Virus genome (UHGV): UHGV-2038699
DNA from: a virus
Direction: 5' to 3' (one strand)
Length of the DNA: 25,477 bases
In this document: in pieces, positions 6,956 to 13,162 of the stretch
How the letters are laid out: each line of letters opens with the position of its first letter
Position numbering within the stretch: the first letter of the stretch is position 1
Position numbers and translations under genes: made by a program
The notes under the pieces: generated by a model
Database searches by the model: none
Told to the model about the DNA's origin: nothing
The model's input: only the letters and a program-made list of their open reading frames with translations

Positions 6956-8020
6956 TCACACCTGTACTTTTTGGAGCGTCGACTGACTATATAATTCACG
7001 ACTGCCACGCGCAAAGCACATCAAATCCATGTACCACGCCTGACCTCTGGTGTCGCCAGTATAGTCGATAGCTTTGACGATATAAACGCCATCCGTCGCA
7101 ATGCTGGCAGCCTGTGACGTCGTACCGGTCAGCACACGGTTGCCATTCTCTTCAGTTTCGGTGATACGCCCGGGCGACTGTGCGATTTCGCTATTACCGA
7201 GCGACGCGCGGTACACCGAAGCCTGATCGAGCTGGATAAGACCATTAATGCGGATGTTTGGGTTTATCAGGCACCGCACGTTTACGCCGCCGCCCATCGT
7301 CTGTTGCGGCATACCAATCAGGCCAGTATTGGCATTCAACACAATGGCTTCGTGAATATATTTATCCTCCGGCACCATCTGGACCTGACCATCCACCAGC
7401 TGCCATGTCGCTTTGCACTGCGCTGCAATATTATCCATCACGTTACGAGTGGATGAGTAAATCGCGCGGCCACGAGGAAACACGGTATCAGGAAAATCGC
7501 CGGTAATGCCCTGTGTCACGCCGAACACGTTGAAATCCTGCATCGTCGCCCGGTGCAGATCCGCAACGGTATAGCCAGCGGCAAGCGTAGTGATGGTAGT
7601 CGCGTAGAGGAACGCTTCATGATCTCCAATAGCCTGAATCAACACCCAGGAATCGGTAATGTTGTCCTTCCCGGTTACGGTAAAGCGAATATCACCGTCA
7701 AAAATCAGGCCGTAGTTCTGACCGTTCACCTGCCCTATCTGGTCTGGTGAAATCTCTCGGGCGACGCCGACCTGGCTCGCATCAACATCCGGCGCTATAC
7801 CGTCATACCCGGCAATGATGCGAATTTTGGCAAACTCCTGCCCCAGTATCTTGTTCGTGGTATCGGTCGAAAGGTTGTAAATTTTCACGTTCGCCACGCG
7901 CGGCCAGCGTGTGTCTGCCCACTCGATCTGGAACGTGACCTTAAAGTCAGACAGGGAAACGCCCTGCCCGTTCTGGTCCAACAGTTGCAGCTCAAAATGG
8001 CGCATCCAGTTAAGAGACAT
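6956..8020 (-). CDS. Baseplate hub / tail protein (P2 gpD / Mu gp44-like position)
   Basis: 354 aa, located between the tape-measure-proximal genes and spike V; assignment is by size and synteny only. Confidence 0.45.
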   Translation of the reverse strand: MSLNWMRHFELQLLDQNGQGVSLSDFKVTFQIEWADTRWPRVANVKIYNLSTDTTNKILGQEFAKIRIIAGYDGIAPDVDASQVGVAREISPDQIGQVNGQNYGLIFDGDIRFTVTGKDNITDSWVLIQAIGDHEAFLYATTITTLAAGYTVADLHRATMQDFNVFGVTQGITGDFPDTVFPRGRAIYSSTRNVMDNIAAQCKATWQLVDGQVQMVPEDKYIHEAIVLNANTGLIGMPQQTMGGGVNVRCLINPNIRINGLIQLDQASVYRASLGNSEIAQSPGRITETEENGNRVLTGTTSQAASIATDGVYIVKAIDYTGDTRGQAWYMDLMCFARGSRELYSQSTLQKVQV

Positions 8021-8022
8021 TT

Positions 8023-8328
8023 CTACTCCTGCACGAAAATGAGGTGGCTGTATGTGCCGAGGTTGGTTTTGGTGGGCTCGTCCGGTGCGCCTACATCGCA
8101 GCCAACGAGCAGCGCCCCGTTAATACCTAGTTGAGGATATTGCTCAAGAAGATTTACACCGGTTACCAGCGGCACGCCAGAAAGAAGCGCAGCACCGCCG
8201 CTATCCATCACGTCCATGATCCAGCCAGCCGCATCGCGCCAGATGATCCTGAGCGTATAGGTGGTATTGCCCAGCAAAACGCGGAACTGCTGATTGTCAG
8301 GAGAAAGCGGTATTTCGTTAAACTGCAT
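8023..8328 (-). CDS. Tail/baseplate assembly protein, hypothetical
   Basis: ATG at 8328 with GGGGGA RBS, 1 nt after the upstream stop; the track ORF extends to a TTG at 8364. Function unassigned. Confidence 0.4.
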   Translation of the reverse strand: MQFNEIPLSPDNQQFRVLLGNTTYTLRIIWRDAAGWIMDVMDSGGAALLSGVPLVTGVNLLEQYPQLGINGALLVGCDVGAPDEPTKTNLGTYSHLIFVQE

Positions 8329-8329
8329 A

Positions 8330-8932
8330 TCATCCCCCGAATGCTGATGTAACGCTTCCGCCAAGCTGGCTCAGCAAGGATTCGTTTGGCTGTGTAGTGG
8401 ATTTCGTCCCGGAATTTTGCACCGCCGATGTGCTGACGCCATCCTGCATATCTGATTTATCAGCAACACTAACGCTCTGCGTTTGCGACATGATCACTTC
8501 ACGCAGGGTAAGCGTGCAGTTCAGCACGTTTTCGCTGGTTTTGTCCGTTGTCACCTCGATGGCTCGCACCAGCATATTGCTGTACACCCGCTTTCCGGTC
8601 ACCACATCGAACGGCACCCGAGAGGACTGGAGATCCAGCAGTTGCTGATAGGTCTCTTTCGGGCTTAGTCCGGCGCTGAGGCCGATTGAAGATGTATCAA
8701 TGAAGTCCAGCAACGAACCGCCACCAGCGAAGCCGCATTCCATTGTGACTTCGCTGGGGCGCTTATACGCATGATCGGCGATGAAGCCCGAAGCGCTATT
8801 CGTTGTTGGCTTCTCCACCGGGTGCTCAGTAATTTCGAGCGCATCAGAATGCTTTTCGGAGACGACCACGCTGGGGATCAGCAGGCCAATTCGCCGGGAT
8901 TGCTGGCGAAAAATCGCTGATAAAATATCCAT
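8330..8932 (-). CDS. Tail protein, hypothetical (between tape measure and hub)
   Basis: 200 aa; ATG overlaps the tape-measure stop codon (translationally coupled). Confidence 0.4.
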   Translation of the reverse strand: MDILSAIFRQQSRRIGLLIPSVVVSEKHSDALEITEHPVEKPTTNSASGFIADHAYKRPSEVTMECGFAGGGSLLDFIDTSSIGLSAGLSPKETYQQLLDLQSSRVPFDVVTGKRVYSNMLVRAIEVTTDKTSENVLNCTLTLREVIMSQTQSVSVADKSDMQDGVSTSAVQNSGTKSTTQPNESLLSQLGGSVTSAFGG

Positions 8933-10944
8933 TATCTCGGTCCTGCGGGGAGTTGCTGGGTTAACTGTGAATTCACGCCCTTTTGACGGTCAACAGTCAA
9001 ACGGGCAGCTTCGCGAGGATCGGAAACGCCGTGGATGTTAATGTTCGTTTCCTGCTGAATCACCGGGGCGCTGGTGGGCATATTGCTCATTACTTTCGGA
9101 ATGTAATTGCGCGTTTCCTGCGGCATTAGCCCCATTCCATAACGCTTAACATTCCCGATCCCCCAGTTATATGATGCCAGTGCTTTGCTAAGGTCTCCGC
9201 CGTTCTGCCGCAACAGCTGGCTGAGGTACTTAGCGGCTGCCTGAGCTGACTTTTCCGGGTCGAATACATCATTCCCACGCAGGCCCATGTCGCGCGCCGT
9301 GCCATCCATAAACTGAAACAGTCCTTTCGCGCCTGCGCCGGATATGGCGAACTGGTTACCACCCGACTCGGTGATCGCCACGCTTTTCAACAGGCCAGCT
9401 GGCAGCTGATAAAGCGACTCCAGTTTATTGAACATTGGCCCCATCCAGTCGAGCAATACCTTACCCTGGGCTGTGGCTTGTGGGCGCTTCACTGACTGGG
9501 CGTATTGCTCCGGTTCAGCGCCTGGAATATCTGACTGAATATTCGCGCCATACACGGTATTGGGATTGCGGCCAAAATCGGTATTAAACCCCATCCAGCG
9601 GAGCGCATCTCCGATGTTTCCTTTGGTGTAGTCCCATGATGATTTAGCGCTTTCTTTAATATTATGCCTGTCGTCCACCAGATACCCGGCATAAATAGCC
9701 CACAGCTTCAGCCATGGCGGCATAGGTATTCCGGCTAACTTAGCAAATGCAGAGGTTATTTTGCTTAACCATACCCCTGCAATGAAGGTAGCCAAAATTT
9801 CCAGTGAGTTCTGCCACCCACCGACAGAATCTTTTAGCTCCAACAGCTTATCTCGCAGCCAGATAATTGCCTTTTTCGCCTTTTCTATTGCTGGTTCCCA
9901 CTTGCTCCAGTCAATCAGGCTTTTTCCGCCCTCTTTCCACGTCTGGTAATCGTCATAGAGTAATCCGATCGCCAGAATCAGCGTGGTGATAATTCCAATC
10001 GGGGATTTCAGGAACGCAGAATTAAGCAGACGCCATGCGACAAGTAGAGCACCGAATATTTTCAGCAGATTTTTACTGCCATCGTCAAGACGCTTCCACC
10101 AGTCGATGACAGAGCCAGCGCCCTGTATCAGCCGCCACGCCATTCTCGTGAATGCGTTCGCAAGCCAGATCACGCCGTTAATAACTCTGGTAAGCGTCTC
10201 TTCAATCTTCGGGAAATTGTCGAGGATGCGCCGCCGCAGGCTGTCCAGCGAACCAGCCAGGCCACCAGCGAGGTTTGAGCCGATCTTGTCCCGCATGATG
10301 CCGAACAGCGACGTAAGCCCGCGCATGGACGTCATGAATTTGTTGGACTGAACAGCCGCTTTATCAGCGTTGAACCCTGTCTTTTGCAGCATCGACTGGT
10401 AATCGGCGGTAAAGCCATTCATGCCGCGCCGCATCGCCATCAGCGTGTTTTCATCGATGCCAAGCATCTGCGCGTATTGCTTCGCGCGGTAATACGGCAT
10501 GTTGTTGAGCTTTTGCCCAACGCCAGTAAAGATGGCCGCAGTATCACGCATCTTTCCGCTGGCATCACGGGTCTGGACACCCAGGCGGTTCAGGAAGCCT
10601 TCCGCCCCCGGATTGCTACGCATGAACCCCGCCAGCCCTTCGAGGGAGGACATAGCCGACTCGGCGCTGGCACCGGTTTGCGATGCGGCATAGCCCAGCG
10701 CTTTGATGCCCTGGACGCTGGCCCCCGTCCGCTGGGATGCCCAGTAAATTTTATCCAGACCATTCGCGATCTGGGTGGTAAATCCGACAATGCTCAGCGC
10801 TGCGCCTTCCACCACCGCGCCGACCTTCAGAACGTTCGCGGTAACACCTTTCAGCACGGCTTCAAACTTATTAGCGCCAGCCTGATCGATATCGAATCCC
10901 AGCGAAACAAGGAAATCTTTAATCGTATCTGCGTTACCGCTCAT
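8932..10944 (-). CDS. Tail tape measure protein with C-terminal lytic transglycosylase (SLT) domain
   Basis: 670 aa, largest tail gene, downstream of chaperone/tube/sheath; internal hydrophobic segments; C-terminal motif SVAITESGGNQFAISGAGAKGLFQFM characteristic of SLT catalytic Glu-Ser region. Confidence 0.75.
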   Translation of the reverse strand: MSGNADTIKDFLVSLGFDIDQAGANKFEAVLKGVTANVLKVGAVVEGAALSIVGFTTQIANGLDKIYWASQRTGASVQGIKALGYAASQTGASAESAMSSLEGLAGFMRSNPGAEGFLNRLGVQTRDASGKMRDTAAIFTGVGQKLNNMPYYRAKQYAQMLGIDENTLMAMRRGMNGFTADYQSMLQKTGFNADKAAVQSNKFMTSMRGLTSLFGIMRDKIGSNLAGGLAGSLDSLRRRILDNFPKIEETLTRVINGVIWLANAFTRMAWRLIQGAGSVIDWWKRLDDGSKNLLKIFGALLVAWRLLNSAFLKSPIGIITTLILAIGLLYDDYQTWKEGGKSLIDWSKWEPAIEKAKKAIIWLRDKLLELKDSVGGWQNSLEILATFIAGVWLSKITSAFAKLAGIPMPPWLKLWAIYAGYLVDDRHNIKESAKSSWDYTKGNIGDALRWMGFNTDFGRNPNTVYGANIQSDIPGAEPEQYAQSVKRPQATAQGKVLLDWMGPMFNKLESLYQLPAGLLKSVAITESGGNQFAISGAGAKGLFQFMDGTARDMGLRGNDVFDPEKSAQAAAKYLSQLLRQNGGDLSKALASYNWGIGNVKRYGMGLMPQETRNYIPKVMSNMPTSAPVIQQETNINIHGVSDPREAARLTVDRQKGVNSQLTQQLPAGPR

Positions 10945-11121
10945 TGGCCGCTCTCCATTTATCTATCCGGGCGTCGTTATCCTCGCGCATGTCGAGGTAG
11001 TCATTGAGAAGCGCGATGCGGCAAAGATCTACCGCACCGCTGTTAAGGTCTTTCTGGTCAATATGGAAGGCAAGCGCCGGACGAAGAATAAAATCTTCAC
11101 CGCCCGGCAGGCTATTGAAGG

Positions 11122-11547
11122 TTATTCCGCTGGCGGGGTGGGCGTCTCGCTGGTAGGGAGTCCTTGCAAAAAATTTCCCAGAGAGTCGGCGACCACCCGC
11201 GCCACCAGTTGCAGCATGGTCAGCAGGTCGATATCGTCAAACGCCATTTCGCCATGCTGGCAGACCGGCACCCAGCCTTTCATGTGCTCGCGTGAAACAA
11301 CGGAAAGACAGGGGAACAGGATAGCGTCCACGTCGCCATCACTCAGATCGGACACAGCATTGGCAATCTTTGGCAGGATGGTAGCCATCGCGCCTTCGGT
11401 GTCTTTGCTGCTGATCTTCTCCTGAACGCTCCGGAAGTCAGAAACCATCCCGGCCAGAACCGGCAACAGCTTGCGGGACACCTTCAGCTGTTCGAAAACG
11501 CTGAGCTTTGCGGTGCGATATTTCACGCCTTTAATTTCGAATTCCAT
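11122..11547 (-). CDS. Tail assembly chaperone (lambda G-like role)
   Basis: 141 aa between tail tube and tape measure; acidic; followed by a 177-bp apparent gap that is covered by the -1 frame extension. Confidence 0.55.
   Translation of the reverse strand: MEFEIKGVKYRTAKLSVFEQLKVSRKLLPVLAGMVSDFRSVQEKISSKDTEGAMATILPKIANAVSDLSDGDVDAILFPCLSVVSREHMKGWVPVCQHGEMAFDDIDLLTMLQLVARVVADSLGNFLQGLPTSETPTPPAE
11167..11179 (-). promoter_or_regulatory. Putative programmed -1 ribosomal frameshift (slippery) site near the 3' end of the tail assembly chaperone gene
   Basis: mRNA reads GGG AAA UUU UUU G: heptamers A_AAU_UUU and U_UUU_UUG in the chaperone frame; the -1 frame stays open for a further ~65 codons to a stop at 10934-10936, overlapping the tape-measure start. 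Confidence 0.5.
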
Positions 11548-11550
11548 GCG

Positions 11551-11991
11551 TTAAAACTCCCCGAGAAGCTGGTCAATCTTGCCGCAGTCGAATACCCATG
11601 CGACGGTTCCGCCCTCTTTAGCGTTATTGAAATCAGGCTGTTTCTGGAATGCACACGAACGTGCAGTAGAAATATCACCCGATGCCGTGTTGCGAATGAC
11701 GATCACGTTATTGCCCCAGGTGGCAGAGGACTGGCTTTGCGCGTTATACGCCAGAGACAGCTTTTTATTCACCGGAGAGGTTTTGAGTAGCGTCACCGTA
11801 ATGGTGCCTGACTTATCGGCGTGCAGGCTGTGCATCACCTCGCCATCGGCACCGATGGTCATGGTGTTTTTGTTGCCGCCCATGGTCTGGGTGATACCTT
11901 CCTCAGAGTTCGCAGAACCCTGACCAAGATCGATAACGCCGGTCGGCCCGGTGAGCGACGCGGTTACATCGAGAAAAGAATAAGTTGCCAT
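11551..11991 (-). CDS. Tail tube protein
   Basis: 146 aa directly downstream of the sheath gene; synteny sheath-tube-chaperone-tape measure. Confidence 0.55.
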   Translation of the reverse strand: MATYSFLDVTASLTGPTGVIDLGQGSANSEEGITQTMGGNKNTMTIGADGEVMHSLHADKSGTITVTLLKTSPVNKKLSLAYNAQSQSSATWGNNVIVIRNTASGDISTARSCAFQKQPDFNNAKEGGTVAWVFDCGKIDQLLGEF

Positions 11992-12001
11992 TTATCGCTC
12001 C

Positions 12002-13162
12002 TTAGCGAACCACGTTGATCTGCACATCGGCATAATGAACTGCGCCAGCCAGCTTACAGGCCACCTGGATTAACGGTGCTTTGCGCGCTTCGCGGTCGGC
12101 CTGCGCCTGTTCGGACAGCGGTTGCGCATACACGTAATAGCCTTTGGTCAGCGTATCGCCGGAATTCAGCTGTCCGATAGGGCCACCATTCCACACGCCA
12201 GCAGCTACCAGACCGTTCGTGACGGACTGATCCATGGACTGTTCAACGTTGGAAAGCAGACGGGTCACACCGGCATCAGTCTGCGGAATTTTGGTGGTGC
12301 TGGTGTAAAGCAGGTTATAGAGGTTGGTCTGAACGTAGTTCTGCAACCAGTCGAGCCCGTGGCGCTCGTCGAAGAAGTCACCGTTCGCCATGACACCCTG
12401 TTGCAGGATCGCCGTGTCGTTGGCGTAGTACACGAATACGTTCGCATTCTTCGTATCCACCGCAGCCGCCTGGCCTACCGTCAACGTTTCGTAGGTTACG
12501 CTTGGTTCCTGTTTGAACTTCAGGGTAATGGTGGTATTGCTGCCGTTGAAATTGACAGTAAACGCACGACCGAAAGCAGAAACCGCTGCGTAAGGGCTGC
12601 TGGTGGAATACTGAATAAAGGTACGGGCATACTTGCCAGCCTTTAATTTCGACGCAACATCGGTCGTCGAAGTCGTGCTGATAATCTCGGCGTCGGCAGA
12701 GGTCACACCAAAGATACGGCTAAGGCTGGACGCTTCAATAAGTTTGGCGACCTCAATCACGTCATCAGCATCAAGCACATCGCCACCAGCGACAACATCA
12801 TCAGCGACAACCAGCCCATACCAGTTGGTATATTGCAGGCAGGCATTAACGGCTTGCACGATAGTTTCAGTATTTCCACTCTCGGAAGAACTCAGCGTCT
12901 TCGCCCAGCGACCAACATAAACCTGTGTCGGCTTCGGTGACTGGCTGAAGAAAACCTGCGCTGCTTTATATTCCGGGCTGTCGACACCGAAGTCTTCGCC
13001 AATGTCCTCAACGGAAGCATATAGGCGAGTACGTTCTGTCACCGGAATGACAGTGGAAGAGCCAAGGATTAGCAATGCGCCGAAGTTACGACCAGTAGCC
13101 GCTTTCGGCGAGATGATCACATCAACGTTTACAACGTTGGATACAGGTAAGCCCTGCGTCAT
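12002..13162 (-). CDS. Contractile tail sheath protein
   Basis: 386 aa, first gene of the tail block after the connector proteins; size and position typical; family (DUF3383-like) is from memory, not searched. Confidence 0.55.

Follow-up and report, generated by a model that had tools for sequence, protein, structure and literature searches.

Analysis of the virus genome UHGV-2038699, a stretch of 25,477 nt referred to here in its full length as the window, indicates that its tail assembly chaperone gene very probably undergoes a programmed -1 frameshift, which would join a 141-aa G-type chaperone (0 frame, 11122..11547, minus strand, stop TAA at 11124-11122) to a T segment of about 78 residues in the -1 frame (10934..11173, minus strand, stop TAA at 10936-10934) and so yield a 204-aa G-T fusion. 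There is likewise little doubt in our minds that this is the cassette by which a temperate phage with a contractile tail recodes its tail assembly chaperone. Judged by comparison with its relatives, the frameshift is real and well supported, and it is of the ordinary, widely conserved lambda G/GT type, a kind already known. An earlier note on this DNA had proposed a lambda G/GT-like -1 frameshift extending the tail chaperone, and all of the defining features of such a frameshift that can be tested computationally were found.

The predicted slip site is a 13-nt run, GGGAAAUUUUUUG (11167..11179, minus strand), which was read directly from the sequence and whose phase was verified: the 0-frame codons are CUG (11181-79), GGA (11178-76), AAU (11175-73), UUU (11172-70), and UUG (11169-67), followed by CAA. 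The run holds three overlapping in-phase heptamers of the form X_XXY_YYZ, namely G_GGA_AAU (11179-11173), A_AAU_UUU (11176-11170), and U_UUU_UUG (11173-11167), 49-55 nt ahead of the 0-frame stop. Between the slip site and that stop (11122..11166, minus strand), the DNA is dual coding, reading ARTPYQRDAHPASG in the -1 frame and QGLPTSETPTPPAE in the 0 frame. Six-frame translation showed the -1 frame to be open for 100 codons (11236..10937) up to the TAA at 10936-10934, which ends 11 nt past the start of the tape measure open reading frame (ORF). The apparent gap between the chaperone and tape measure genes spans 177 bp (11121..10945). The earlier note had described this layout, with a chaperone ending at 11122, a 177-bp gap, slippery heptamers in the chaperone frame near the end of the gene, and a -1 frame open to a stop at 10934-10936 that overlaps the tape measure start; its coordinates check out, and retranslation gave no earlier stop.

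Both halves of the predicted fusion match known families. The 141-aa product matches Phage_TAC_15 in Pfam (PF21822; E = 4e-33; 114.9 bits against a gathering threshold of 22) and phrog_1688 (E = 3e-57). An AlphaFold2 model of this chaperone (pLDDT 82.9) gave no significant Foldseek match in the PDB; its predicted fold was scored as similar to those of solved tail assembly chaperones of the HK97 gp10 (2OB9) and YqbN (3KLU) type, and by Pfam, PHROG, and predicted fold the 141-aa product is a tail assembly chaperone. The 81-residue -1 translation, for which the earlier note had suggested a homology search, matches Pfam DUF6889 (PF21829; E = 7.4e-12; 45.3 bits against a threshold of 23.9) and phrog_4364 (E = 1.3e-17), and the T extension has a mean pairwise identity of 0.60 among 58 enteric relatives. 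DUF6889 is the T domain, which Phage_TAC_15 tail assembly chaperones carry at the C terminus in the -1 frame. No ORF of at least 20 aa beginning with ATG, GTG, or TTG was found in the -1 frame of the window; a conserved T domain that lacks a start codon is reachable solely from the G frame.

Two sets of relatives were compared, namely 80 species-representative genomes and 40 phage records retrieved by tblastn with the modelled fusion, the latter including 17 annotated loci. All 40 records, from phages of Klebsiella, Escherichia, Hafnia, Salmonella, Yersinia, Ralstonia, Bordetella, Burkholderia, Acinetobacter, Providencia, and Edwardsiella, matched the fusion as two pieces in different frames. 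The T domain lies in the -1 frame at all 17 annotated loci and in all 80 species genomes, and phages of gamma- and beta-proteobacteria keep this layout at G identities of 28-40%. An in-phase X_XXY_YYZ heptamer occurs at the same aligned codons in 76 of the 80 species genomes; these codons spell the L-G-x-F motif with which the TAC_15 domain ends. Elsewhere in the 80 related genes, such heptamers occur in phase at 12 per 10,898 codons (0.0011 per codon), with counts of 35 and 40 for the other two phases; given this background, only about 0.04 in-phase heptamers would be expected in the 37-codon overlap.

The heptamer itself varies by lineage and is still slippery in each version (GGGAAAT, AAATTTT, TTTTTTG/C/T/A, GGGTTTT, CCCTTTT, or GGGCCCT). 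The commonest arrangement, found in 40 genomes, is that of the window (GGGAAAT, AAATTTT, and TTTTTTG together), and it is accompanied by an additional TTTGGGC in 3 more. In close variants, TTTTTTG is replaced by TTTTTTT (5 genomes) or TTTTTTA (1 genome), or GGGAAAT and AAATTTT stand by themselves (2 genomes); AAATTTT is paired with TTTTTTG in 4 genomes and with TTTTTTC in 2. Single heptamers are represented by CCCTTTT (10 genomes), TTTTTTG (5 genomes, of Erwinia type, in which U_UUU_UUG is the sole heptamer remaining), TTTTTTT (2 genomes), and GGGAAAT (1 genome), the last being the sole heptamer in the Bordetella/Achromobacter lineage. One genome has GGGCCCT with CCCTTTT, and a canonical heptamer is absent from 4. 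A first scan of IMG/VR returned near-identical loci only and served to check the stability of the T run: T6 was kept in 78 of 80 such loci, and an intact 81-codon -1 ORF in 79 of 80.

Overlapping coding has also left its mark on codon usage. Synonymous diversity was calculated as the fraction of same-amino-acid pairs with different codons among 62 distinct enteric-type G genes; the overall value was 0.51, with 0.45-0.69 for 5-codon windows in the body of the G gene, and diversity fell to 0.18 at G124 and to 0.00 at N125 and F126 in the slip site. It stayed at 0.02-0.07 in the 0 frame through codon 130 and partially recovered up to the stop. The drop starts at the first heptamer and not 5' of it. 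Within the overlap, the mean pairwise identity across 58 sequences was 0.55 for the -1 peptide (FFARTP[RY]QRD...) versus 0.34 for the 0-frame tail (QELPTSET...); conservation of the -1 frame starts at the slip site, within the G ORF. Since third positions of the 0 frame are first positions of the -1 frame, the conserved -1 peptide is enough to account for the frozen synonymous sites, and no RNA element has to be invoked. Taken as comparative evidence, these data bear out the two-frame architecture with its conserved slip site, the assignment of the domains, and the absence of separate initiation for T.

Departures from the common pattern are few. The four species genomes that lack a canonical heptamer have one-mismatch versions of it (G_CCU_UUU, U_CCU_UUU, or GUCUUUUU). 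Sequences such as GAU UUU AUG, U_UCU_UUU, and G_CCU_UUU stand at the site in loci including L094:595-1274, L098 (Burkholderia phage vB_E192a), L160, L168, L169, and L174; such lineages may rely on a single-tRNA slip on U_UUU or on independent initiation. Two other variants speak for the frameshift. Three loci (L122, L155, and L173) have a -1-frame stop directly 5' of the U-run, and a shift there is therefore possible on U_UUU_UUN alone. A contig from Logan accession SRR23924998 (L083:1893-1912) reads GGGAAATTTTTTTG, with T7 instead of T6, which puts G and T in one frame as a 213-aa ORF reading ...SLGNFFAYTPYQ... (P0004, 16 member sequences); its junction is exactly that expected from slippage. 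The seventh T could be genuine, making this a natural allele with G and T fused, or it could be an error in sequencing the homopolymer. The T ORF is aberrant in two genomes (L119:1070-1200 and L142), having 41 codons in Enterobacter sp. R1 and running on into unrelated sequence in Izhakiella australiensis, which suggests that these are decaying prophages.

In the mechanism that we propose, the majority of ribosomes would stop at 11124-11122 and release the 141-aa G-type chaperone, and a minority would slip back one nucleotide on the 13-nt run (11179-11167) and read on to the TAA at 10936-10934, producing the 204-aa fusion whichever heptamer is used. The likeliest event would be simultaneous slippage of tRNA-Asn and tRNA-Phe on A_AAU_UUU, with the flanking G_GGA_AAU or U_UUU_UUG also possible. 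In a systematic study in E. coli, V_VVA_AAR and H_HHU_UUY were two of the most efficient motif types (PMC4066793), and A_AAU_UUU, like the C_CCU_UUU of Burkholderia lineages, falls in the H_HHU_UUY class. Slippage on either G_GGA_AAU or A_AAU_UUU would give the same protein, ...SLGNFFAR..., with the tryptic junction peptide VVADSLGNFFAR, and slippage on U_UUU_UUG would give ...SLGNFLAR..., with the tryptic junction peptide VVADSLGNFLAR; these replace the junction of the plain -1 conceptual translation, ...SLGKFFAR..., which simultaneous slippage would not produce. In phage lambda, G serves to coat the tape measure protein and T to recruit the tube protein (PMC5009743). By analogy with lambda gpG/gpGT, G units here would coat the tape measure protein, the rare T domain would recruit the tail tube protein, and tube and sheath would polymerise to the measured length, the G:GT ratio being set by frameshift efficiency; neither G nor G-T would be expected to remain in the virion.

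Several observations weigh against a programmed frameshift and have to be set beside this evidence. A canonical heptamer is lacking not only in 4 of the 80 relatives but also in phages vB_E192a and ZHS, and the T ORF of the latter, an Edwardsiella phage (L094), has its own ATG (MMENEDILYRP...). Two of the three heptamers in the window, G_GGA_AAU and U_UUU_UUG, are outside the high-efficiency E. coli class, and any of the three may be the one used. No RNA structure of the expected kind was found close to the slip site. The earlier note had suggested looking for a downstream stem-loop or pseudoknot; among stems starting 1-12 nt 3' of the U-run, the longest uninterrupted one in the window has 4 bp, the enteric clade does no better than shuffled sequences, and an alifold consensus of 62 enteric sequences has essentially no structure (-0.6 kcal/mol). 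Lastly, the support for frameshifting in this chaperone family is all comparative.

Other candidate elements around the site were considered as well. RNAfold of the 107 nt 3' of the U-run gave -34 kcal/mol (z = -2.7), a fold that we rejected, as its stems begin at least 16 nt downstream and are not kept even in the closest relatives; a fold spanning the slip site (141 nt, z = +0.13) was also rejected. An Rfam scan of 10800-11400 at E ≤ 1 returned no match. Upstream, the sequence GGUGGUC (11198-11192) can pair with GAUCACC at the 3' end of 16S rRNA, one of the pairs being G.U, and ends 12 nt 5' of G_GGA_AAU; it could be a Shine-Dalgarno-like stimulator. It also encodes Val-Val, of which only V118 shows somewhat lowered synonymous variation (0.29). 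A GC-rich inverted repeat (CCGGGCGGAGAAGA...UCUCCGCCCGG) encodes the T-frame motif LPGGED-ILRP. In the window, it lies at 11077-11107 (minus strand) and is degenerate; it is much stronger in L116, L124, L132, L133, L141, L145, and L157, and in some enteric clades reaches -50 to -63 kcal/mol over 132 nt, with a shuffle z down to -5 for the downstream 100 nt. The repeat is about 65 nt past the slip site and about 14 nt past the 0-frame stop, which is too distant for a classical stimulator.

Non-enteric relatives differ from the window in this respect. In 17 of 18 of them, drawn from Burkholderia, Cupriavidus, Acinetobacter, and metagenome-assembled genomes (MAGs) of Methylophilaceae and Acidobacteriaceae, NNNUUUU is followed, after a spacer of exactly 6 nt, by a stem of 6-9 uninterrupted pairs, the heptamer being C_CCU_UUU or A_AAU_UUU (L162:1088-1116, L099:1035-1063, L172:1157-1195, and 14 others). 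The stem covaries: pair 3 occurs as G-C, C-G, U-A, A-U, or G.U, and pair 6 as G-C or C-G. The non-enteric site thus has the form of a heptamer-spacer-hairpin cassette, and the stem looks like a frameshift-stimulating hairpin. Since the enteric clade shows no such RNA stimulator, its extended, triple-slippery, U-rich run probably works alone. It is possible, and we suggest it tentatively, that two recoding solutions have replaced each other within the Phage_TAC_15 + DUF6889 family, one being a single X_XXU_UUU heptamer with a 6-nt spacer and a covarying hairpin of 6-9 bp, and the other a 13-nt triple run ending in U6; the hairpin type would then belong to beta-proteobacterial, Acinetobacter, and other non-enteric lineages and might, somewhat speculatively, have been lost in the enteric clade. 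If this is true, the enteric run may act without any stimulator and could give two junction isoforms (…NFFA… and …NFLA…). For recoding biology, the family makes it possible to compare, within one natural group, a single heptamer stimulated by a hairpin with an extended slippery run that has no structure.

Three other explanations of the locus were weighed against a programmed ribosomal frameshift. Frameshifting would be needless if DUF6889 were a separate small gene with its own start in the 177-bp gap, and this is how it appears in some annotations: in E. coli CX12, RefSeq/PGAP has a "DUF6889 family protein" of 27 aa (L001:1735-1818, equivalent to window 10934-11017), small coding sequences (CDSs) are called in phages yong1, GZ7, ST340, BgManors32, PSTCR3, and ZHS, and protein databases hold DUF6889 entries of 46-75 aa (P0121-P0146). 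The PGAP call begins at ATC, however, and the database entries are inconsistent in length and cut off conserved residues. Besides the lack of any ATG/GTG/TTG ORF of at least 20 aa in the T frame of the window, 56 of 76 usable relatives have no possible start codon on the way from the slip site to the conserved LPxGED motif, and where possible T starts do exist, their positions are not conserved but scattered over 45 codons. Conservation of the -1 frame, moreover, begins inside the G ORF at the slip site, and we regard a separate gene as highly improbable. The two frames could also be joined during transcription, if RNA polymerase added an extra U on the T6 run and so produced some mRNAs with G and T in frame. 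A run of at least 6 T is always present in the enteric clade, and the T7 assembly does give an in-frame fusion. Efficient programmed transcriptional slippage requires A/T runs of about 8-9 or more, though, and the T6 of the window is short by that measure. Homopolymer slippage is implausible in relatives whose sole heptamer is CCCTTTT (T4) or GGGAAAT, and these keep the two-frame layout; the motif is always in the ribosomal X_XXY_YYZ phase. The covarying hairpin exactly 6 nt 3' of the heptamer in non-enteric relatives has the geometry of a ribosomal stimulator and favours ribosomal over transcriptional slippage for the whole family; transcriptional slippage is therefore very unlikely.

It might finally be supposed that there is no recoding at all, the -1 ORF being a decayed or chance open frame and the gap a non-coding spacer. 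That the evidence for the fusion is comparative would suit such a reading, as would the truncated or aberrant T ORF in 2 of the 80 genomes (L119 and L142), but a chance frame would not be expected to give significant Pfam and PHROG matches, to hold a mean pairwise identity of 0.60 across 58 relatives, or to be conserved across gamma- and beta-proteobacterial phages whose G proteins have diverged so far. The conservation data effectively refute this explanation, which we consider extremely improbable, and even taken jointly the three alternatives are unlikely beside a programmed -1 frameshift.

The main value of the finding is in annotation. The 177-bp "gap" corresponds to the T half of the chaperone, as do the lone DUF6889 proteins annotated in E. 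coli, Klebsiella, Salmonella, and numerous phage records; such stand-alone calls are artefacts of leaving the frameshift unmodelled. In phage records, the T region is called as a small CDS of varying length or not at all, and the names given to some T-ORF entries include "lytic transglycosylase" and "NTP pyrophosphohydrolase." No papers turned up in a literature search for "DUF6889"; the Pfam family can now receive a function as a -1-frame chaperone domain.

All genes in the tail part of the window are on the minus strand, and their order, sheath, tube, G, T, and tape measure, is the same at the 17 phage loci. The tail sheath gene (12002..13162, 386 aa; Pfam DUF3383, E = 1e-101; phrog_205 "tail sheath," E = 1.7e-128) identifies the element as a contractile-tail (myovirus-type) prophage. 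The tail tube gene (11551..11991, 146 aa; PF11681, E = 5.8e-60; labelled DUF3277 family protein in RefSeq) is directly 5' of the chaperone. The tape measure gene (8932..10944, 670 aa, ATG at 10944-10942) matches phrog_2276 "tail length tape measure protein" (E = 5e-222) and has an SLT lytic transglycosylase domain at the C terminus of its product (residues 504-604; Pfam SLT, E = 3e-25), because of which relatives label it merely "transglycosylase SLT domain-containing protein." Pfam further identifies Dit-like, Pam3_gp18-like, and E217_gp41-like baseplate proteins at 6956..8932 (minus strand). The tape measure ATG overlaps the final four T codons, and the GGAG Shine-Dalgarno sequence of this gene (10956-10953) sits within the T coding sequence. 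The tape measure gene and G share one frame, and ribosomes translating G-T would terminate 8 nt inside the tape measure gene, which may permit translational coupling. A promoter and terminator scan found nothing relevant within the 177-bp gap. Plus-strand ORFs at 11063..11425, 10384..11007, and 11004..11156 have no Pfam match and were taken as antisense artefacts. The tail region is 97.8% identical to that of Citrobacter phage Omnitron and 98-99% identical to prophages of 37 complete E. coli genomes.

The definition of the G/GT-type tail assembly chaperone with a programmed -1 frameshift is said to come from Xu et al. in 2004. The gene order, a second ORF overlapping in the -1 frame and lacking an initiation signal, an in-phase heptamer, and conservation of these features in diverged relatives are all found here. 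The definition further calls for a fixed ratio of the short to the long protein, with both required for tail assembly, and for G binding the tape measure protein and T the tube protein, with neither present in virions. The lambda gpG/gpGT frameshift itself was reportedly described by Levin in 1993 and by Xu, Hendrix, and Duda in 2004, 2013, and 2014, and the principle of the chaperone frameshift has been known since 1993-2004. As in lambda, the two genes are flanked by those for the tail tube and the tape measure protein, the T ORF lacks a start codon, and no RNA stimulator is obvious. The -1 shift is likewise predicted to occur towards the 3' end of G on a heptamer of GGGAAA type, which opens with the same G_GGA_AA, and to give a short product along with a longer one extended at its C terminus. 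Unlike lambda, the phage in the window has a contractile tail; its proteins belong to Phage_TAC_15 and DUF6889 and have no detectable sequence similarity to lambda G or T, and its slip element is a 13-nt triple heptamer ending in U6, whereas that of lambda is a single G_GGA_AAG. Such G-T frameshifting is widely conserved in long-tailed phages (PMC5009743).

Comparison with other systems extends this picture. Phage P2 gpE/gpE+E' and other myovirus chaperones come from different protein families; by their descriptions, these contractile-tail phages use a -1 frameshift in the chaperone gene 5' of that for the tape measure protein, as is predicted for the window. Poly-U chaperone slip sites are present in Pakpunavirus and FelixO1-like phages (PMC5009743; PMC12846349), and U-rich slippery motifs (GTTTTT) have been reported to be conserved in myophage chaperone genes (PMC12846349). 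Escherichia coli dnaX and IS911/IS3 likewise involve tandem tRNA slippage on X_XXY_YYZ by the bacterial ribosome, but these use a Shine-Dalgarno-like element, about 10-14 nt 5' of the heptamer in cassettes of this type, together with a 3' hairpin or pseudoknot, and no downstream structure was found in the window; a stem-loop about 5-9 nt 3' of the heptamer, the mark of a stimulated cassette, is likewise absent from the window and present in non-enteric relatives. The nearest parallels are two true homologues with the same gene order, whose GenBank records label a "tape measure chaperone frameshift product" arising by the same -1 frameshift, these annotations being themselves predictions; chaperone frameshifts of the Mulock/Magia type have been annotated previously (PMC7883833). 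Burkholderia phage Magia gp15/gp16 has about 37% identity to the modelled fusion and differs from the window in having C_CCU_UUU followed, 6 nt downstream, by a 9-bp stem-loop. Klebsiella phage Mulock CPT_Mulock_014/015 is closer, with 56% identity to the modelled fusion and an identical GGGAAATTTTTTG.

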